This document shows, piece after piece, positions 1 through 21,235 of a stretch of 64,000 nucleotides of DNA. Below the pieces are notes generated by a model. It made no database searches, was not told the DNA's origin, and saw only the letters and a list, made by a program, of their open reading frames with translations. The first letter of the stretch is position 1. Every line of letters begins with the position of its first letter. Source of the DNA: Candidatus Omnitrophota bacterium (GTDB lineage Bacteria > Omnitrophota > Gorgyraeia > VGKH01); the NCBI GenBank assembly GCA_022703055.1, contig JAKLEP010000001.1:346850-410849 (forward strand), in the 5' to 3' direction. The position numbers and the translations under genes were made by a program.

Positions 1-76
1 GATGGCGGAATGGCATACGCGCATGGCTTAGGACCATGTGCCGCAAGGCTTGGAGGTTCAACTCCTCTTCCGCCCA
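1..76 (+). tRNA. tRNA-Leu (anticodon UAG), 5' end cut by window edge
   Basis: D-arm GCGGAATGGCATACGC. Anticodon stem-loop CATGG-CTTAGGA-CCATG. Long variable arm. T-arm GGAGG-TTCAACT-CCTCT. 3' acceptor TCCGCCC plus discriminator A. Only the last 2 nt (GA) of the 5' acceptor strand lie inside the window. Confidence 0.85.
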
Positions 77-111
77 TAAAAGGATTCATTTAGGATTTAT
101 TTGGATTATAT

Positions 112-187
112 GCGGGAGTAACTCAGTTGGTAGAGTGCAACGTTGCCAACGTTGATGTCGCGGGTTCGACCCCCGTCTCCCGCTCCA
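112..187 (+). tRNA. tRNA-Gly (anticodon GCC) with encoded CCA
   Basis: Acceptor GCGGGAG/CTCCCGC. D-arm ACTCAGTTGGTAGAGT. Anticodon stem-loop CAACG-TTGCCAA-CGTTG. T-arm GCGGG-TTCGACC-CCCGT. Ends in T-CCA. Confidence 0.9.
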
Positions 188-11960: not shown

Positions 11961-13630
11961 AAATGACAGGTTCGCAAATTTTAATTGAGAGCCTGAAGCG
12001 AGAAGGCGTAGAGTTTATCTTCGGCTATCCCGGAGGCCAGGTTCTGCCTATTTTTGATAAGATTTACGATGCTCACTTTCTAAAGTTTATCCTAACACGG
12101 CACGAACAAGGTGCAGCTCATGCTGCCGATGGTTATGCGCGGGCAACCGGTAAAGTCGGAGTCTGTATGGCAACTTCTGGTCCAGGAGCTACGAATTTGA
12201 CGACAGGCATTGCCAACGCCTATATGGATTCGATTCCTATAGTGGCGATAACCGGCCAGGTAAAGACGTTTTTAATCGGTAATGACGCTTTTCAGGAAGC
12301 AGATGTGACAGGAATCACTCGTCCCATAACCAAACATAATTTCTTGGTTAAGGATATTAACGATTTGGCGCGCATTATTCGCGAAGCATTTTATATTGCT
12401 TCTACCGGTCGTCCTGGTCCTGTGTTGATCGATATCCCGTCTGATATCCAGATGCAAGAGGGGGAATTCATCTGGCCGGATAAGGTGGAGTTGCGCAGCT
12501 ATAAACCGACATATTTTGGCCATCCTGGTCAGATTAAGAAGGCCGCAAAACTTATTTCGCAGGCAAAAAAGCCGCTTCTTTATATCGGAGGCGGAGTCAT
12601 CACCAGCGGCGCGCATTTGGTTTTAAGGGAATTGGCAGAAAAGATTCAGGCTCCTGTAACCTGGACATTGATGGGTATTGGAGGATTTCCTGCTAATCAT
12701 AAACTTTCGCTAGGTATGCTTGGTATGCACGGCACTGGCTATGCGAATCATGCGATAATGAATGCCGATGTAATCATCGCCGTGGGCGCGCGCTTCGATG
12801 ACCGCGTTACTGGTAGGATAGATGCTTTTGCGCCGGGCGCAAAAGTTATTCATATCGATATCGACCCGGCTTCTATAAGTAAAAACATCAGAGTAGATAT
12901 CCCGATAGTGGGAGATGCGAAAAATATTCTTGGCGAATTATTGGAGCAGATTAAGAAAGCTCCTGATATAACAGAGTGGCATAAAGAGGTCGACGGTTTA
13001 AAGAAGAAATATCCTTTAAAATATAAGGATGACGGAAAAATCAAGCCTCAATACGTGGTCGAGCAGATTTATGAGGCAACCAAGGGCGATGCAGTTATTA
13101 CTACTGAAGTCGGCCAGAACCAGATGTGGGCTGCGCAGTGGTATAGATATGATCACCCGCGTACGTTTATTTCAAGCGGCGGACTCGGGACCATGGGCTT
13201 TGGTTTTCCTGCGGCAATGGGGGCCAAAGTCGGCCGTCCGGAAAAACAAGTTATTGATATTGCCGGTGATGGTTCAATCCAGATGAATATCCAAGAACTC
13301 GGTACTTGCGTTGCCAATAAGATAAATGTTAAAGTAGTGATTCTTAATAACGGATATTTAGGCATGGTGCGCCAATGGCAGGAGCTATTTTATAAGAAGC
13401 GTTATTCCCAGGTCAATATCACTTCGCCCGATTTCGTGAAGCTCGCGGATAGTTATGGTGCCTTAGGCATCAAAGTCACAAAAAAGGAAGATGTGCGTCC
13501 GGCGATTGAAAAGGCGCTATCAATAGATAACACAGTTTTTGTTGATGTGCAAGTCGAGCCGGAGGAAAATGTGTATCCGATGGTTCCGGCGGGTGAAGCG
13601 ATAAACAAATTGATAGAAGGTTTGGCATGA
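11957..13630 (+). CDS. ilvB: Acetolactate synthase large subunit
   Basis: ThDP enzyme motifs FGYPGG and [16 protein letters not shown]...GDGS. Start placed at ATG 11957 (ATGA overlap with the ilvD stop). The track start at 11867 lies inside ilvD. Confidence 0.9.
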
Positions 13631-14100
13631 GACATACGATATCGGTGTTGGTTGAGAATAAATTCGGAGTCCTGGCGCGTATCGCAGGTTTATTTAGCGC
13701 GCGCGGCTACAATATTGCGTCGTTGGCGGTCAGTGAGACGATGGATCCAGCTATCTCCTACATGACGATCGTGGTTGAGGTAAAAGATGAAAAGATATTG
13801 GAGCAGATAAAAAAACAGCTGAATAAACTTATTGACGTTGTCACCATTACCGATTTTACCAAGAAGGAACATATCGATAGAGAGCTTGTTTTGGTGAAAG
13901 TCGATTATTCTTCTAAAGACAAAGCAAGGTTAGAAAATATACTAAGTAAACATGTGGCTAAGTTGATCCAGCATAAATCCGATGTGGCGATTATCGAGGC
14001 AGTCGGAGAACAGGCCCAGATTAAACAGCTATTAGATGACTTAAATAAATTCGGAATAAAGGAATTGGTCAGAACCGGCAGAATTGCCATAACGAAATAG
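13627..14100 (+). CDS. ilvH: Acetolactate synthase small (regulatory) subunit
   Basis: 157 aa. ACT-domain N-terminus [28 protein letters not shown]. Confidence 0.9.
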
Positions 14101-14113
14101 AAAGGGAGATGAA

Positions 14114-15106
14114 ATGGCGAAGATTTATTACGACAAAGATGCGGATTTGGATTTATTAAAAGATAAGACAGTGGCTATTATCGGCTACGGGATTCAGGGC
14201 CGAGGCCAGAGCCTATGTTTAAAGGACAGCGGCGTAAAGGTAGTCGTTTCCGAGATCGAAGGCACGCCGAATTTTGAACAGGCAAAGAAAGATGGCTTTA
14301 ATCCGGTTTCCGCAAAAGAGGCAGCCGAACAGGCAGACATTATCCAGATTTTGACCCAGGATCATGTCCAGGCGCAGGTTTATAAGGAATCAATTAAACC
14401 TTACCTAAAGAAAGGCAAGGCGCTTTGTTTTTCCCACGGATTCAATATCCGTTTTAAGCAGATAAAACCGCCGGCCAAAGTTGATGTATTTATGATTGCG
14501 CCTAAAGGCCCCGGAGCATTGGTAAGAAGAATGTATGAAGAGGGAAAAGGTGTTCCGTCGCTGGTAGCGATATTTCAGGATGCATCAGGCAACGCACTAA
14601 AATTAGCCTTAGCTTACGCCAAGGGAATCGGTGCCACACGCGCTGGCGTCATCGAGACGACTTTTGACGAAGAAACCGAGACCGATCTTTTCGGCGAGCA
14701 GGCAGTGCTTTGCGGCGGAGTAACTGAGTTGATTAAAGCGGGATTTGATACTTTAATCGAAGCCGGATATCAGCCCGAGATTGCCTATTTTGAAGTTTTG
14801 CATGAATTAAAACTCATTACCGATTTAATTCAAGAGACCGGGATTTCCGGAATGCGCAGGCGCGTTTCTAACACCGCTTGCTATGGCGATTTAACCCGCG
14901 GGCCAAAAATCATTACACAAAAAACCCGCAAAGTCATGCAGAAAATACTTAAAGACATTAAATCGGGAAAGTTTGCCCGCGAATGGATCAAAGAAAACGA
15001 AGCTGGAAGGCCGAATTTCAATAGCTTGCTTAAACAAGGCGACGAACATAAGATAGAACAGGTGGGAAAGCAGCTTCGCGAAATGATGCCATGGATGAAA
15101 AAGTAG
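14114..15106 (+). CDS. ilvC: Ketol-acid reductoisomerase
   Basis: 330 aa. NADP site [19 protein letters not shown]. Conserved C-terminal knotted domain. Confidence 0.95.
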
Positions 15107-15312
15107 CATTCGAGGCAGTTTATACTACTTTTAATCAAGGCAGATTAGCGTTAATAAAGTCTTTATTTGATAGTGAAGGTATTTTTTATTATGTGGCTAA
15201 CGAGGATGCAGCAAGCGCAGCCTTTGGTGCGGTAAACGGTACGATGACTTTTATGGTTGCTAAGGATCAGGTCGATTTAGCCAAAGATTTATTAAAGGAA
15301 TTAAGTGAATAA
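15091..15312 (+). CDS. Small DUF2007-like (putative signal-transducing) protein
   Basis: 73 aa. Size and the pattern (alternating hydrophobics, EGI..Y..NED) resemble the DUF2007 family. Overlaps the ilvC end by 16 nt. Confidence 0.4.
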
Positions 15313-15314
15313 CA

Positions 15315-16847
15315 ATGGATAAAATAATTATTTTTGATACGACACTGCGCGACGGAGAACAGGCACCAGGGGCGAGTCTTAACGCCAAAGAGAAGCTTGA
15401 AATTGCTCGTCAACTGGTTAGGCTGGGCGCGGATGTTATCGAGGCGGGATTTCCTATTTCTTCACCAGGAGATTTTGCTTCGGTAAAAGAAATCGCCACC
15501 AAAATAAAAGGCGCGGCTATCTGTGGCTTGGCTCGGGCAATCAAAAAAGATATTGATGCTGCCTATAATGCAATAAAACCTGCAAAGTCAGGTAGAATCC
15601 ATGTATTTCTGGCTACTTCAAAGATTCACATGCAGTATAAACTCAAAAAAGCCGAGGGTGAAATTCTGCGTCTGACCGAGGAAATGGTCAAATACGCCAG
15701 AAAGAGAATGGGCGATATCCAATTTTCTCCCGAGGATGCTTCGCGCACCGAGAAAGATTTTCTCTACAAGGTTATTGAGACTGCCATTAATTCCGGCGCT
15801 ACCACCATCAACATTCCCGACACTGTCGGATATGCAGAGCCGGAAGAATTTGGTGTTTTGATTAATGATATTATGAATAATGTCCCGAATGTCAATAAGG
15901 CCGTTATTGCCGTACATTGCCATAACGATTTGGGTCTAGCGGTTGCCAATTCACTGGCAGCGGTGAGAAACGGCGCGCGCCAGGTTGAATGTACGATCAA
16001 CGGAATTGGCGAACGTGCCGGCAATGCCTCGATGGAAGAAATCGTCATGGCCATAAAAACGCGGCGGGATTTGTTTAGCAATGTAAGCACCGCCATCAAT
16101 ACCAAAGAGATTTATAAAGCCAGCCGCATGGTCAGCAAGCTCACCGGTTTTGTGGTGGCGCCCAATAAAGCCATCGTCGGAGGGAACGCCTTCAGGCATG
16201 AATCAGGAATCCATCAGGATGGTGTTTTGAAAAAAAGGACCACCTATGAGATAATCGATCCTAATGACGTCGGTTTTACCGGCGAAGGACTGGTTTTGGG
16301 CAAACATTCCGGCCGTCACGCTTTTAAACAAAGACTGGAAACGCTGGGTATAAAACTTAATGACATTGAACTTGATAAAGCATTTAGCCGGTTTAAAGTC
16401 CTAGCTGATAAAAAGAAAACTGTCTACGACGAGGATTTGATTTCGATTGTCGAGGATGAATTTAGAAAAGTCTCGGAAATATGGCAATTGGATTCTCTTC
16501 AGATTTCCAGCGGTACCAATATAACTCCCAAGGCTTGCGTGAAATTGAAATCCAAGGGTAAATTTTTTGTTTCGTCTTCTTCCGGAGACGGCCCGGTTGA
16601 TGCCTGCTACAAAGCCATTGATAAGATTACCAAGGTTAAGGGAGAGCTTTTGGATTATTCTATCCAGGCAGTTACCCGCGGTAAAGACGCATTGGGCGAG
16701 GTCAGTATCAAAATCCGCGCCAAAAACCAAGAAGTAGCTGGACGCGGAGCAAGCACCGATATTCTCGAGGCTTCAGCCAAGGCATATCTTAACGCCATAA
16801 ACAGAGTCCTATCTAAAAGTTCAAAATCTACAGGTTTAACTCTCTAA
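15315..16847 (+). CDS. leuA: 2-isopropylmalate synthase (long form with a LeuA regulatory domain)
   Basis: 510 aa. Motifs IFDTTLRDGEQAPG, HCHNDLGLAVAN, GERAGNA. Confidence 0.9.
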   Translation: MDKIIIFDTTLRDGEQAPGASLNAKEKLEIARQLVRLGADVIEAGFPISSPGDFASVKEIATKIKGAAICGLARAIKKDIDAAYNAIKPAKSGRIHVFLATSKIHMQYKLKKAEGEILRLTEEMVKYARKRMGDIQFSPEDASRTEKDFLYKVIETAINSGATTINIPDTVGYAEPEEFGVLINDIMNNVPNVNKAVIAVHCHNDLGLAVANSLAAVRNGARQVECTINGIGERAGNASMEEIVMAIKTRRDLFSNVSTAINTKEIYKASRMVSKLTGFVVAPNKAIVGGNAFRHESGIHQDGVLKKRTTYEIIDPNDVGFTGEGLVLGKHSGRHAFKQRLETLGIKLNDIELDKAFSRFKVLADKKKTVYDEDLISIVEDEFRKVSEIWQLDSLQISSGTNITPKACVKLKSKGKFFVSSSSGDGPVDACYKAIDKITKVKGELLDYSIQAVTRGKDALGEVSIKIRAKNQEVAGRGASTDILEASAKAYLNAINRVLSKSSKSTGLTL

Positions 16848-17680
16848 TGAAAAAGATTTACGGGATAGTTGGATATCCGGTTAAGCACAGCCTTTCGCCG
16901 GCGATGCATAATGCTGCATTTAAGGCTTTAGGCATTGATGCAGAATACAAACTCTTCGAGGTAAAACCTGAGGAATTAAAATCTTTCTTAAAAGATCTAG
17001 GGAAGAATAGTATTCAGGGTTTAAATGTCACTATCCCTCATAAAGAGAACGTATTTGAATTTGTCTCTCTTGATTCGGATAATTCCTACTTAAAACAAAT
17101 CGGCGCTATAAATACCATTGTTAATAAAAATGGAAAATGGTTTGGGTATAACACCGATATACCGGGTTTTGCCAAGCATTTGAAAGAGAACTTTGATCCG
17201 GCGAATAAAAAAGTCGCAATTGTGGGAGCTGGCGGAGCAGCAAGGGCGGTAAGCTTCGCCTTGGTGAAATCCGCAGCTAAGGAGATATCCATTTTCGACA
17301 TTGATAAAAGTAAATCAGAAAATATCAGTAAGATGATAAAAAGTTTAGAGGCTGATTTTCCTATTTATGTCGCCAAAAGTATTGAGGATTTGAAAATCAA
17401 TAATAAAGATCTGCTTATCAATGCTACTCCCCTTGGATTGAAACCTGCGGATAATCTTCCGGTAGAAGAAAAGATGCTACGCAGAGATTTATTTGTTTAC
17501 GATTTGATTTATAACCCAGCCGAGACGCAATTATTGAAACTTGCCAGAAAAGTTGGCGCTAAGACTTCCAATGGCCTTGGCATGCTTTTGTATCAGGGGA
17601 TGCAGTCATTTGAAATCTGGACGGGGAGCTTTGCGCCAAAAGAGGTAATGCAAAAAGCCCTATTGGAAGCATTGCAATAA
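16847..17680 (+). CDS. aroE: Shikimate dehydrogenase
   Basis: 277 aa. Motifs GYPVKHSLSPAMHN, NVTIPHK, VGAGGAARAV. Confidence 0.9.
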   Translation: MKKIYGIVGYPVKHSLSPAMHNAAFKALGIDAEYKLFEVKPEELKSFLKDLGKNSIQGLNVTIPHKENVFEFVSLDSDNSYLKQIGAINTIVNKNGKWFGYNTDIPGFAKHLKENFDPANKKVAIVGAGGAARAVSFALVKSAAKEISIFDIDKSKSENISKMIKSLEADFPIYVAKSIEDLKINNKDLLINATPLGLKPADNLPVEEKMLRRDLFVYDLIYNPAETQLLKLARKVGAKTSNGLGMLLYQGMQSFEIWTGSFAPKEVMQKALLEALQ

Positions 17681-17682
17681 CC

Positions 17683-18414
17683 ATGGAAAAAAGAGAAAGA
17701 TTAGAAGAAGAATTTGAATTAGAGGATGAATCAGAGGCTTTTGCCGAATACGATTTTATAACTTCGTTTATTGCGGTGAATTATTCTCTTATGGCCGATG
17801 AATTAGCCAAGCTGGGTAATTTCGAAGAGGGTGTTGCTGTTGATTTAGCCAGCGGCTTGGGAGATTTGGCCATTGAGGTTGCTAAAAGATATCCCAAGTT
17901 AAGAATTACTGGAGTTGATATTTCCGGCAAGGCAGTTCAGAAGGCAGGCGAGAGAGCGAAAAAAGAAGAATTGGATAATTTAGATTTTGAAGTCGGCGAT
18001 GTGCATAAACTTTCCCAAAAAGATAATTCCGTAGATTTGGTAGTCAGCCACGGCGGGATTCATCATTGGAAGGATGTATCGCGCGCCTTCTCAGAGCTTT
18101 ATCGTGTAATGAAGCCCGGAGCCTTAGCATATTTATCGGATTTAAGAAGGGATGCGCCGGATGAAATCATCAAAGAGATCGAGCAAAATTTACCGCCAGT
18201 CCAGGCAAAAGGATTCATCAATTCTATTCGCGCCGCCTACCTTCCCGATGAATTAAGGAAGATTTTAGAGACTGTTGGTATCAAAAATCCTTCCATAACC
18301 GACCAGACATTCTCCCGGGAAACCATCATGAAAAATAAAGAGCTCCTTCGTAAAAGCGCAATGAGGAGCGCAAATTTTTCTAAATTATCACAAATTGTAA
18401 TCATCAGAAAATAG
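17683..18414 (+). CDS. Class I SAM-dependent methyltransferase
   Basis: 243 aa. Motif I VDLASGLGDLAIE and post-I GVDIS. Substrate unknown. Confidence 0.7.
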   Translation: MEKRERLEEEFELEDESEAFAEYDFITSFIAVNYSLMADELAKLGNFEEGVAVDLASGLGDLAIEVAKRYPKLRITGVDISGKAVQKAGERAKKEELDNLDFEVGDVHKLSQKDNSVDLVVSHGGIHHWKDVSRAFSELYRVMKPGALAYLSDLRRDAPDEIIKEIEQNLPPVQAKGFINSIRAAYLPDELRKILETVGIKNPSITDQTFSRETIMKNKELLRKSAMRSANFSKLSQIVIIRK

Positions 18415-18457: not shown

Positions 18458-18976
18458 TTATTTGCAGGAATCTAGTTTATCGAGGACAAAGCGGGTGGGT
18501 CTTCGGATAAATTCAGCGCGGAATTTTAGATTTTCGATATTATAAAAATCCACAATAAGCCTGAAATTAGCGCTGGAAAGATGCGGCAGGATTCCTTCGG
18601 GCGTGCGGACAGTTCCTTCCTGGCCTTGATGGATGGCGGAAAAATTCAATTTGATTCTTTCGTTGGGCCTCAAGATTTCTACCGGTTCAAATTTCAAGGT
18701 AAAACGCATCATAAAGCCAAAATCCAAGATGTCCACATCGGTATCTTGGATGCTGATTTCTTTAGCCATCATAGTGCTTTCGTTTTTTATGAATAGACCC
18801 AAGTCTTTTAAGTCTAAATCAAGCATTAATTCTGGCACTAGGCGTTTATGGATTTCTTGGATAAGGGATTTCTTTAGCCTGCGAATCTGTAGCAATGCGA
18901 TTACAAGAATTGCCAGCGTAATAAAAATCAGCCAATCTTTAAATGAGATTCTTGATAATAGATCTAATATATTCAT
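18458..18976 (-). CDS. Hypothetical membrane-anchored protein
   Basis: 172 aa. Single N-terminal TM (WLIFITLAILVIALLQI). No recognisable domain. Confidence 0.5.
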   Translation of the reverse strand: MNILDLLSRISFKDWLIFITLAILVIALLQIRRLKKSLIQEIHKRLVPELMLDLDLKDLGLFIKNESTMMAKEISIQDTDVDILDFGFMMRFTLKFEPVEILRPNERIKLNFSAIHQGQEGTVRTPEGILPHLSSANFRLIVDFYNIENLKFRAEFIRRPTRFVLDKLDSCK

Positions 18977-19056: not shown

Positions 19057-19905
19057 TTAGCGCTCTAGTTCGCAATCTTTGGCATATTTAATGATTATGA
19101 CTCTATCAACCGGGTCCAGCTGGACAAACACAGCTCCGATTTCATAGCGTTTCTTGTTTTCAATTTCCTGTACGCGTACAACTTTCACCACCGAGGCTAT
19201 CGGCCTTGCTGATACACTTTTGGGAAGATCTATTTCAAAAGTAAGGTAGGAGTTTAGTGGCAGCTCATTAGCTGAATAAAAACACACGCCACCGGCGCTA
19301 ATATCCTTGGTTTCTTTCTTTACGTAAGTGTCTTGATGGGCAAAATGGACATCAAGGTTTGCCTTGAATCGGAAGAACCGTCTTCTTTCTAAACCCTTAT
19401 AAATTTTTACATCGATTATGTTCGGTTCGATGTCATTGCTTAGTTCTTCGGATATGCGTATTCCATAATATGTCTCAAGAGCATTTTTAATATCTGATAT
19501 TGTGGCGATAAAAACCTGGACTTCGCATCCAGTGGCTAATTTCACCGCCTGGAGAGCTTCGTAGTTTAAGGGATTGACCATGGCGATAGTGATAAGCGAG
19601 CCGATTTTATCTATCGGTATAAGGCAAAATTTCTCAGAGATAGATGCAGGAACCAAATTGATTATTTTTTTATCTATTGTGAAGCTGGAGATATCGATAT
19701 AAGGAAAGCCGTATTGTCTGCAGATACAGAGGACTATATCTTTTTCCGAAACATAGCCGTGTTTGACCAGATAGTCGCCGATAAAACCGCCGTATTGTTT
19801 CTGGTAGCCAAGAGCCTCTTTTAATAATTCTCTATTTATGAGTCCTTGTTCCAGAAGCAGCTCGCCGATTTTCTTCCTGGTAGATAACTTTGAATCTGTA
19901 ACCAT
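19057..19905 (-). CDS. MshEN/T2SSE_N domain + PilZ domain protein (predicted dual c-di-GMP receptor, no ATPase domain)
   Basis: Two tandem 24-residue MshEN-type motifs (KIGELLLEQGLINRELLKEALGYQ and FIGDYLVKHGYVSEKDIVLCICRQ) separated by the 5-residue spacer KQYGG. C-terminal PilZ motifs RRFFR and DISAGG. Start moved to ATG 19905 (SD AGAGG). The track's GTG at 19947 sits inside the leader hairpin. Confidence 0.8.
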   Translation of the reverse strand: MVTDSKLSTRKKIGELLLEQGLINRELLKEALGYQKQYGGFIGDYLVKHGYVSEKDIVLCICRQYGFPYIDISSFTIDKKIINLVPASISEKFCLIPIDKIGSLITIAMVNPLNYEALQAVKLATGCEVQVFIATISDIKNALETYYGIRISEELSNDIEPNIIDVKIYKGLERRRFFRFKANLDVHFAHQDTYVKKETKDISAGGVCFYSANELPLNSYLTFEIDLPKSVSARPIASVVKVVRVQEIENKKRYEIGAVFVQLDPVDRVIIIKYAKDCELER

Positions 19906-19937
19906 TTTGCTACCTCTATGAATTATATAATATAAAT

Positions 19938-19967
19938 GCCGAGCCACCTTTATTTCGGTAGCTCGGC
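19938..19967 (-). terminator. Candidate riboswitch expression-platform terminator hairpin
   Basis: Minus-strand GCCGAGCTACC-GAAATAAA-GGTGGCTCGGC forms an 11 bp stem including one G-U. It is followed by the A/U-rich ATTTATATTATATAATT, between the aptamer and the SD. Confidence 0.5.
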
Positions 19968-20000
19968 TGTCAAATTGGCTTTATGAGTTCTGCCCTTACG

Positions 20001-20103
20001 TTATCGGTGCGCCCGGCGATCGATTTCGGCCTTGCTCTTTTAAAGCCTTTAGACCCGTGGCTTTGCGTCTTCGTCTTTCGGCGAATTTGCCTTTTCGGAT
20101 AAG
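20001..20103 (-). promoter_or_regulatory. c-di-GMP-I (GEMM-I) riboswitch aptamer
   Basis: Minus-strand TTATCCG-AAAA-GGCAAA-TTCGCC-GAAA-GACGAA-GACGCAAAGCC-ACGGGTCTAAAGGC...GCCGGGCGCACCGATAA. It has the conserved GGCAAA, a GNRA-capped helix, GACGCAAAGCC, a CUAAA receptor-like bulge, and a closing P1 (TTATCCG/CCGATAA). Confidence 0.8.
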
Positions 20104-20212
20104 GGTTTATTCTTATTCCATTTAAAGTATATATCAAAAAGAGGATTTTTAAAGGTCTTGTACGCAGACTTCGGGAAGCGTTTTCTTGTGAAAATCTGCG
20201 ATATTTTATCCC

Positions 20213-20275: not shown

Positions 20276-21235
20276 ATGAAAAAAATATTAATTATAGTAG
20301 GATTGATCATTGTTTTTATTGTCGGTTTTTCTATTGTTAGAGACCAGCTTATCAAAACTACCATATCAATTGTTGGTTCGAGCGTCCTAGGCGCAAGAAT
20401 AGAGGTGGGCGGTTTTTCTTTAGGATTAATGACGCAATCCGCCAAAATTAGTAATTTTAGAATTTATAATCCCGCGGGTTTTCCTCAGGGGATACTTTTA
20501 GACATGCCTAAAATCAGCGTGGACCTTGATATTCTTTCTATGCTGAAGGGAAAATTGCACATACAAAGCGCGGTTGTTGATTTGAAGGAAGTAGATATCG
20601 TAACCAATAAAGATGGGGTGTTAAACGTTGATTCCCTTAAGGTTGCTCAGCAGGACAAAAAGACAGATAAAACTAAAGCGCAGAAACCGGCTAAAGCCAT
20701 GCCTATGCAAATTGATACCATGACCTTAAGTATCGGCAGTGTGGTCGTCAAGGATTATAGCAAAGAGGGAGAGCCAAGTATTCAGGTATATGATGTCGGG
20801 ATAAAAGACAAAACCTATAAAAATATAACCAGCGCCCAGCAATTCATTGTTTTAGTTTTGACTGAAGCAATGAAGCCGACGGCAATAAGAAGCGCGGGAA
20901 TTTACGGAGCCGCAACTATACTAGGCGTGGCATTTTTGCCGGCAGGTGTAGCAGGGGTCTTAACCGCCAAAGACTATTCCCAATTCGACTTTAATGTTAA
21001 TGCGGATAAAGCTTACAATGTCAGTTTAGATGTTTTAAAACAGATGGGCGTGGTTAAAAGCGAAGACAAGGCAGCCAGAGTCATTAAAGGTAAGATAGAC
21101 AAGAACGACATCACTATTAAAATCGAACAGAAGGAAAAGGTATCACAGGTAACTGTCTCAGCGAGAAAGTTTATGCTTCCCCAGGCTCAAATAGCGGCCG
21201 GGGTAATGTATAAGATTTCTGAGAGATTAAAATAG
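20276..21235 (+). CDS. Hypothetical envelope protein (AsmA-like N-terminal region)
   Basis: 319 aa. N-terminal TM. Beta-rich N-terminal region resembles AsmA/DUF748-type proteins. Strong SD AAAGGAGGAG. Confidence 0.4.
   Translation: MKKILIIVGLIIVFIVGFSIVRDQLIKTTISIVGSSVLGARIEVGGFSLGLMTQSAKISNFRIYNPAGFPQGILLDMPKISVDLDILSMLKGKLHIQSAVVDLKEVDIVTNKDGVLNVDSLKVAQQDKKTDKTKAQKPAKAMPMQIDTMTLSIGSVVVKDYSKEGEPSIQVYDVGIKDKTYKNITSAQQFIVLVLTEAMKPTAIRSAGIYGAATILGVAFLPAGVAGVLTAKDYSQFDFNVNADKAYNVSLDVLKQMGVVKSEDKAARVIKGKIDKNDITIKIEQKEKVSQVTVSARKFMLPQAQIAAGVMYKISERLK

Follow-up and report, generated by a model that had tools for sequence, protein, structure and literature searches.

An element that, judged by its sequence, is a genuine and Rfam-detectable class I cyclic di-GMP (c-di-GMP-I) riboswitch precedes the gene of a small MshEN-PilZ protein in a stretch of DNA from Candidatus Omnitrophota bacterium (assembly GCA_022703055.1, contig JAKLEP010000001.1, positions 346,850 to 410,849), and its single aptamer 5′ half faces two look-alike 3′ halves, which yields two mutually exclusive aptamer folds. 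We refer to the whole stretch of 64,000 nucleotides as the window and number it from its first letter. As a c-di-GMP-I riboswitch the element is ordinary; what is new is that its 3′ half is present in two conserved copies, together with a rod helix. Our preferred account, held at slightly better than even confidence, is an ON switch in which c-di-GMP would lock the long fold (L), sequester one arm of an intrinsic terminator and so let the gene be expressed, with the short fold (S) as a transient form and the rod driving the exchange from S to L. The elements of the leader and the gene are the following:

20126..20153, minus strand: promoter-like site, TTTAAA-16 nt-TATACT (consensus scan; block conserved in orthologs)
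20096..20105, minus strand: 5′ strand of P1, CCCUUAUCCG (5 of 10 columns invariant, mean majority 0.94)
20047..20095, minus strand: shared aptamer 5′ half (cmscan alignments)
20028..20047, minus strand: 5′ strand of the rod, made up of E1 GGCUUUA 20047-20041, E2 GAG 20037-20035 and E3 GCC 20030-20028 (RNAfold, RNAduplex)
19993..20030, minus strand: proximal (nested) pseudo-3′ half, GCCGAAAUCGAUCGCCGGGCGCACCGAUAACGUAAGGG (S-only model score; conservation)
19977..19994, minus strand: 3′ strand of the rod, made up of E3 GGC 19994-19992, E2 CUC 19987-19985 and E1 UAAAGCC 19983-19977
19947..19979, minus strand: distal, canonical 3′ half, GCCAAUUUGACAGCCGAGCUACCGAAAUAAAGG (cmscan alignment; conservation)
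19925..19967, minus strand: intrinsic terminator, hairpin and U-rich tail (terminator scan)
19903..19916, minus strand: Shine–Dalgarno (SD) sequence GAGG 19916-19913 and ATG 19905-19903 (sequence)
19057..19905, minus strand: MshEN-PilZ gene, 282 amino acids (Pfam, translation, alignment of 10 orthologs)

Class, pocket and predicted ligand of the aptamer

Searching the whole window with the Rfam 15 covariance models at gathering thresholds and with the clan filter on returned three matches: two tRNAs at the left end and one class I c-di-GMP aptamer, RF03167 (‘c-di-GMP-I-GGC’), at 20100..19953 on the minus strand (63.2 bits, E 1.4e-12; gathering score 59). In the window, another family of its clan (CL00126) likewise exceeds its own gathering score and is masked by the clan filter. 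The observation is real and far beyond chance. An earlier note on this DNA, made from the letters alone, had proposed a class I c-di-GMP riboswitch and named a covariance-model search as a check; the significant clan match on the correct strand bears it out, and the reverse complement of 20001-20103 reads letter for letter as quoted there. What gave way is its closure of P1 by GAUCGCCGGGCGCACCGAUAA (~20021-20001). In the best model alignment, P2 and P1 are closed by GACAGCCGAGCUACCGAAA at 19971-19953, so that the aptamer runs on to 19953, into the hairpin, and ~70 nucleotides after GGGUC become an insertion at the tip of the second arm; the closing block of the earlier note, ...GGGCGCACCGAUAA (20013-20001), is not the closure preferred by the model.

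The comparison set comprises eight full-length leaders, those of the window, L138, L139, L140/141, L142, L143/144, L001 and L145, together with the truncated L146; they belong to orthologous genes at 56-95% protein identity, and three of the eight are very close. All eight share the order of promoter-like block, CCCUUAUCCG, 5′ half, proximal copy (flanked by variable stretches and ending in CCGAUAAC-UAAGGG), distal copy, terminator with a U tract, SD and ATG. Clan matches at gathering level were obtained in seven of the recovered leaders. RF03167 is the best Rfam model for the window and six orthologs (59.8-63.8 bits), and the L142 leader matches the canonical RF01051 at 73.5 bits (gathering score 35). 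The L145 leader gave no Rfam match, because a 48-nucleotide insertion sits inside GACG^GCAAAGC; both its 3′ halves and its terminator are intact. This insertion of ~48 nucleotides (L145:105-160) is structured and falls in the pocket segment, and with a contig coverage of 1.4x an assembly error is possible.

The label ‘c-di-GMP-I-GGC’ is only nominal here, because A occupies the position of A47 in every sequence. The RF03167 consensus has G at this position (GACGCGAAgCc), the consensus lines of RF03167 and RF01051 being GACGCGAA and GACGCAAA, respectively, whereas GACGCAAAGC or GGCGCAAAGC stands at this place in the window and in every ortholog, with A in 8/8 sequences as in RF01051. ‘GGC’ is said to stand for the three pocket nucleotides, a naming that reportedly goes back to Weinberg and colleagues in PNAS in 2017. 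RF03167 probably outscores the other models because its short P2 takes the large insertion more cheaply. The caution for annotators is that a large insertion can give rise to artefacts, both in the boundaries set by a model and in the ‘GGC variant’ label.

The nucleotides that matter most can be placed by reference to the Vc2 aptamer of Vibrio cholerae, for which the roles of G20, A47, C92 and the C44-G83 pair have been described (PMC4744006, PMC5888326). In the shared 5′ half, the junction reads AAAAG, the equivalent of G20 is the first G of GGCAAA (20091), and that of A47 is the A after GACGC (20064). C92 corresponds to the C of ACCG, either at 19958 in the distal copy or at 20007 in the proximal copy, and the interhelical C44-G83 pair corresponds to 20067 with 19967 (distal) or 20017 (proximal). 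All of these equivalents are present and invariant in the ortholog alignment. An A at position 20 goes with cyclic AMP-GMP (c-AMP-GMP; GEMM-Ib) (PMC9481103); it was not found in any of the eight sequences, the G at 20091, already pointed out in the earlier note, being kept in 8/8. The pocket predicts c-di-GMP, and not c-AMP-GMP, as the ligand.

Within the 5′ half, the P1a hairpin (20090-20065) carries a GAAA loop (20079-20076) that is invariant in the orthologs, and all six of its stem pairs have changed on both sides across the eight sequences, i.e. in a compensatory manner. In the block from GACGCAAAGC to CUAAAGGC, 21/25 columns are invariant. The 5′ strand of P2 (20062-20052) leads into the receptor strand UCUAAAG (20053-20047), whose tetraloop receptor is canonical in L142 (CUAAG / UAUGA), reads CUAAAG / UAUUGA with the distal copy in most orthologs and CUAAAG / AAUUUGA in the window, and is mostly degenerate in the proximal copies.

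The 5′ strand of P1 can pair with CCGAUAAC-UAAGGG in the proximal copy; its complementarity to CCGAAAUAAAGG in the distal copy is less regular. The strand is kept even in three orthologs with two hairpins inserted before GGCAAA. These two extra hairpins (45-90 nucleotides; L142:64-122, L001:2690-2774, L145:18-95) lie between the CCCUUAUC(C/G)G strand and GGCAAA. P1 would need to close a five-way junction in these three leaders, where the helix directly 5′ of the G20 equivalent is a local hairpin, not P1.

One 5′ half and two alternative 3′ halves

In S, the 5′ half pairs with the proximal copy (~20021-20001), and this is the aptamer that the earlier note had drawn. In L, it pairs by way of the rod with the distal copy (19971-19953), the 3′ half picked by cmscan in the window and seven orthologs. 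The proximal copy is nested inside the ~70-nucleotide P2 insertion. When the search was limited to 19995-20125, S alone reached 55.4 bits (E 5e-13), with one G inserted before the pocket, and in the ortholog L142 it reached 55.6 bits.

Both copies are conserved, with 16/22 invariant columns in the proximal core and 14/18 in the distal core of the eight-sequence alignment, and they differ in their details. The junction of the distal copy, GCU-A-C-CG, is the exact consensus (GcU-N-C-CG), and most orthologs retain UAU(U)GA as its receptor strand. The proximal copy has one extra nucleotide between P2 and the C92 equivalent (GCG-N-A-C-CG) in 8/8 orthologs, and its receptor strand is degenerate in 6/8. 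The consensus junction and usually recognisable receptor strand of the distal copy, set against the altered proximal copy, point to L as the sensing fold. The same one-nucleotide difference beside the C92 equivalent, constant in all eight orthologs, could also be the mark of two sensors with a common 5′ half, S and L binding different ligands (e.g. relatives of c-di-GMP like pGpG, or a mixed dinucleotide) with opposite outputs, as S frees the terminator arm that L sequesters. We consider this very improbable, given that the equivalents of G20 and A47 are common to both folds and that the gene context points only to c-di-GMP.

Pairing statistics are high for either fold, at 94.7% for S plus terminator and 91.6% for L plus rod, both far above slid controls. 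P2 with the proximal copy is 98.6% paired, with one pair varying between CG, UG and UA; listed in full, this single variable pair takes the forms C-G, U-G, U-A and C.A when the proximal copy is the partner, while pairing with the distal copy gives U-A or C.A.

The rod composed of E1, E2 and E3 was found in 8/8 leaders by RNAfold of the insertion and by RNAduplex, with E2 absent in L140. Its strands are little conserved in sequence (1/14 and 1/13 columns invariant). Across the orthologs, E1 is GGC../..GCC, E3 is GCC/GGC, and E2 appears as GAG/CUC, GAGU/ACUC, GAGUU/AACUC, CGAGUU/AACUCG, AGGGU/ACUCU or AAAAGUU/AACUUUU. The rod prolongs P2 past the tetraloop receptor, leaving the proximal copy as an apical loop of ~30 nucleotides; it fits L and excludes S, for which the same GGC, GCC and GGG are needed. 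A pseudoknot of the S loop with the 3′ tail, by which E2 and S could coexist, was also considered, and we infer that its 4-nucleotide linker makes it sterically unlikely.

If the proximal copy had no relevant pairing, the element would be a plain ON riboswitch with a peripheral P2 insertion, and the copy would be a ‘ghost’ relic or a site for protein or tertiary contacts. The distal end of P2 indeed tolerates insertions, 54-70 nucleotides being absorbed by the models, and structure prediction for the isolated insertion gives the rod, whose apical loop holds the copy. Yet 16/22 core columns of this loop are invariant at 56-95% protein identity while the rod strands vary, and the conserved positions are exactly those complementary to the 5′ half (P2 strand, G83, C92 and P1 strand), which makes this explanation improbable to our minds.

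Terminator overlap and direction of the predicted switch

The promoter-like sequence, CUUUAAAAA..N..(U)AUACUUUAAAU, recurs in the leaders of the orthologs, and the predicted transcription start lies at ~20116-20120, upstream of the aptamer. The terminator scan recovered the terminator-type expression platform proposed in the earlier note, an 11-bp hairpin at 19967-19938. Its stem pairs GCCGAGCUACC (19967-19957) with GGUGGCUCGGC (19948-19938) around the loop GAAAUAAA, eight of the 11 pairs being G-C, and the U-rich tail AUUUAUAUUA (19937-19925) follows directly. Across the eight orthologs, 97.7% of the cells of this stem are paired, with changes of the G-C/G-U and U-G/U-A type. The hairpin had been described as lying downstream of the aptamer; it exists, and SD and ATG do follow it, but its 5′ arm overlaps the aptamer and competes with it. 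The 11 nucleotides of GCCGAGCUACC are at the same time the P2 3′ strand of the aptamer and its C92 equivalent (model positions 66-76). It is this competition that would provide a switching mechanism, i.e. the link from ligand binding to termination that was missing from the earlier drawing.

Three further features of the leader deserve mention. First, in L001, an Omnitrophota metagenome-assembled genome, the terminator loop holds an extra hairpin of ~55 nucleotides (CUCAGGAUUCGUCCUGAG plus flanks; L001:2912-2975) between the distal copy and the 3′ arm, which would lengthen the decision window. Second, CCCUU of the leader (20096-20105) is complementary to AGAGG in the SD region (19913-19917) and pairs with it in the full-length minimum free energy (MFE) structure; a second, translational layer of control is conceivable on this basis. 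Third, pairing of the proximal copy with the terminator 3′ arm is possible in the window (11 bp, one bulge) and was rejected, as the L143 arm GGUAG fits the distal CUGCC and not the proximal UAACC.

Nearest-neighbour calculations on the 184-nucleotide leader give the terminated states, with either S or the rod, -52 to -54 kcal/mol, and the best structure forced to hold P2 with the distal copy -38.9 kcal/mol. The terminated state is favoured by ~15 kcal/mol; the contribution of P2 with the distal copy is no more than ~3 kcal/mol. In a series of prefix MFE structures, an S-type P2 is present at 112 nucleotides, the rod at 136, the exact L structure at 150-160 and the terminator from 166 onwards, and a similar folding order is seen in 4-6 of the eight orthologs. 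Unliganded L cannot hold off the terminator with only ~3 kcal/mol from P2, which speaks against an OFF design; without ligand, the terminator should win fast because P2 is weak and an ACC toehold is free for the GGU of the terminator.

These calculations and the state of the two copies together argue for the ON switch outlined at the start, and we infer that the regulatory sensor is not S, which would exist only transiently, as a competitor or as a form of early assembly. The proximal copy, transcribed ~50 nucleotides before the distal one, would pair first and give S; formation of the covarying rod would then drive the exchange of S for L. With c-di-GMP bound, L would sequester three parts of the terminator: the 5′ arm, the toehold ACC on the loop side and the GG with which the 3′ arm begins. 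Occupied in this state would be the C92 equivalent, the adjacent P1 pairs and, via CCUU/AAGG, the first two G of that arm. RNA polymerase would read through the locked L, and the receptor gene would be expressed; in the absence of ligand, the terminator would displace the weak P2 and transcription would stop. One possible role of the proximal copy is that of a competitor, keeping the 5′ half occupied up to the formation of the rod.

Several points weigh against this account. The comparison rests on only eight related sequences, three of them very close, and with P2 nearly invariant, covariation does not discriminate between S and L. P1 is more regular in S (UUAUC/GAUAA plus CCC/GGG), the variable P2 pair of the window is better in S (C-G) than in L (C.A), and RNAalifold favours S on the segment from P2 to the distal copy. 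The U tract of the window (AUUUAUAUUAU) is weaker than those of the orthologs, which are cleaner (U5-7), and nearest-neighbour energies leave out tertiary contacts and ligand. Tight binding of c-di-GMP by S would free the distal copy for the terminator and thereby turn the switch OFF.

In such an OFF switch, S would be the sensor: with ~105 nucleotides made, c-di-GMP would lock the 5′ half on the proximal copy, the rod would be blocked, and the distal copy would pair with GGUGGCUCGGC, resulting in termination, whereas L would serve as an aptamer-shaped antiterminator without ligand. S is a complete aptamer-like fold by its scores of 55.4 and 55.6 bits, and the stronger P1, the 98.6% paired P2 with its one covarying pair and the RNAalifold result are all on its side. 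It is also transcribed first, which gives it the longer time window, and the equivalents of C92 and G83 are invariant in the proximal copy. Even so, we think an OFF switch unlikely. Its antiterminator would be very weak (~3 kcal/mol) against a terminator advantage of ~15 kcal/mol and a free ACC toehold, so that termination would be expected with or without ligand. Moreover, the distal copy keeps a canonical pocket junction and receptor strand for which a mere antiterminator would have no need, and it is the proximal copy that has the extra nucleotide beside the ligand-pairing C and, in 6/8, the degenerate receptor strand.

A tentative elaboration of the ON switch, to which we assign a rather low probability, is that the ligand is loaded early and handed over with the strand. 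Here, S would capture c-di-GMP ~50 nucleotides ahead of the distal copy, and the rod would drive a nearly isoenergetic three-strand exchange from the proximal to the distal 3′ half with the ligand staying on the shared 5′ half, so that the 5′ arm of the terminator would already be locked when its partner emerges. If true, this would solve a problem of ON-type terminator riboswitches whose ligand binds slowly, namely that the time for the decision is very short, and it would be an expression platform of a new kind in which two alternative partners share one sensor half. Ligand binding by both folds in a band-pass fashion was dismissed on logical grounds: S has the longer window and would always win.

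The regulated gene, its relatives and known systems

The regulated gene encodes two predicted c-di-GMP-binding domains, as stated in the earlier note: Pfam detects MshEN (E 1.5e-16) and PilZ (E 1.3e-12), and no ATPase or other output domain is present. MshEN domains have been defined by two 24-residue c-di-GMP motifs separated by a 5-residue spacer (PMC5013675). In the window protein, these motifs span residues 12-35 and 41-64 (KIGELLLEQGLINRELLKEALGYQ - KQYGG - FIGDYLVKHGYVSEKDIVLCICRQ), with K (motif 1) and F (motif 2) rather than R as first residue, and the G, L and Q at their key positions do not vary among 10 orthologs. The PilZ motifs are RRRFFR (174-179) and DISAGG (201-206), of which R174, R175, R179, S203 and G206 are invariant in the same 10 proteins. 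The orthologous proteins all start at the equivalent Met.

One more open reading frame (ORF) follows the gene:

18458..18976, minus strand: ORF of 172 amino acids without a Pfam match, 80 nucleotides downstream of the MshEN-PilZ gene

This ORF may be co-transcribed with the MshEN-PilZ gene. It has an N-terminal hydrophobic segment and is conserved only in the two closest relatives (L138, L139), and in L140 and L142 a pseudouridine synthase gene stands in its place. On the opposite strand, a run of biosynthetic genes and among them those for ketol-acid reductoisomerase, a 2-isopropylmalate synthase-like protein, shikimate dehydrogenase and a methyltransferase (window 13627-18414, plus strand) converge on it, the methyltransferase gene ending ~40 nucleotides from the end of the ORF. 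The divergent neighbour at 20276-21235 (plus strand) is DUF748/AsmA-like and is followed by two ORFs without a Pfam match and a PEBP-family protein; the block from DUF748/AsmA to PEBP is syntenic in L138 and L139. Two tRNA genes lie at the left edge of the window (1-184, plus strand), the first being cut by the window end.

Close relatives of the protein are few, each of them from a metagenome or a Candidatus Omnitrophota bin. MshEN-PilZ fusions of 270-570 amino acids turned up in about 90 clusters, the named ones mostly labelled Candidatus Omnitrophota or Omnitrophica, and the riboswitch occurs only in the closest subfamily (>=56% identity). The distant MshEN-PilZ paralogs L058-L061 (33-45% identity) showed no riboswitch at gathering threshold; in L058, a tRNA takes the place directly upstream of the gene. 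In a regular-expression scan of 146 loci, the only matches to the GEMM-I 5′ half came from the close orthologs and L062, and no independent example of a duplicated half was found among these loci, which had been collected by protein query and not by a search for the DNA pattern. L062 provides a contrast case with the ordinary single-3′-half arrangement: a compact c-di-GMP-I aptamer (L062:1470-1544, 70.5 bits) with A at position 47, no insertion and a separate terminator, located on a high-GC metagenome contig upstream of genes for a pilT-like ATPase, a stand-alone 156-amino acid MshEN protein and a pilB-like ATPase.

We found no literature on riboswitches in Omnitrophota, and the present case extends the c-di-GMP-I class to this phylum, which is known almost only from metagenomes. 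One second messenger would act twice on the same small receptor, once through its RNA and once through the protein itself, which would probably make a feed-forward loop, and an ON-type switch would mean that c-di-GMP raises the level of its own receptor. The protein resembles described MshEN and PilZ receptors (PMC5013675) in both 24-residue motifs and the 5-residue spacer as well as in the PilZ motifs RxxxR and DxSxxG; unlike them, it is a small stand-alone fusion of a family largely confined to Omnitrophota metagenome bins.

The RNA shares with GEMM-I type 1 (RF01051, V. cholerae Vc2) the GGCAAA, the GAAA-capped P1a, GACGCAAAGC, the canonical G20, A47 and C92, in most orthologs a P2 receptor of the form CUAA(A)G / UAU(U)GA, the AG bulge with its interhelical G, the ..GCU-A-C-CG that closes the pocket and the placement in the 5′ leader before a c-di-GMP-related gene. 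It departs from this family in its P2-tip insertion of 55-70 nucleotides with a conserved second copy of the whole 3′ half and, in three orthologs, in the two hairpins inserted between the P1 5′ strand and G20. A survey of tandem riboswitches reported hundreds of complete c-di-GMP-I doublets, all of them complete tandem aptamers without a shared half (PMC9481103), and no GEMM-I riboswitch with a duplicated half was found in the literature including this survey. In this natural example, a single aptamer half would have two partners to choose from, a situation that surveys scoring complete aptamers would miss. A conserved remnant of a duplicated aptamer part beside a functional aptamer also recalls the ‘ghost aptamer’ of singlet glycine riboswitches, which Ruff and colleagues are said to have described in 2016; the latter reportedly supplies tertiary contacts without strand competition, whereas the extra half here is a direct pairing competitor.

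The closest parallel in mechanism is offered by ON-type transcriptional riboswitches in which the aptamer 3′ strand is also the terminator 5′ arm, such as the pbuE adenine riboswitch and the c-di-GMP riboswitch Bc2 of Bacillus thuringiensis. As in these, a ligand-stabilised aptamer helix would compete with the terminator stem, termination being the default. Where pbuE and Bc2 have a single 3′ strand, the earlier, surrogate 3′ half and the rod would here add a step of strand exchange, making the element a tractable system for the study of co-transcriptional strand exchange and of how ON switches cope with slow ligands.

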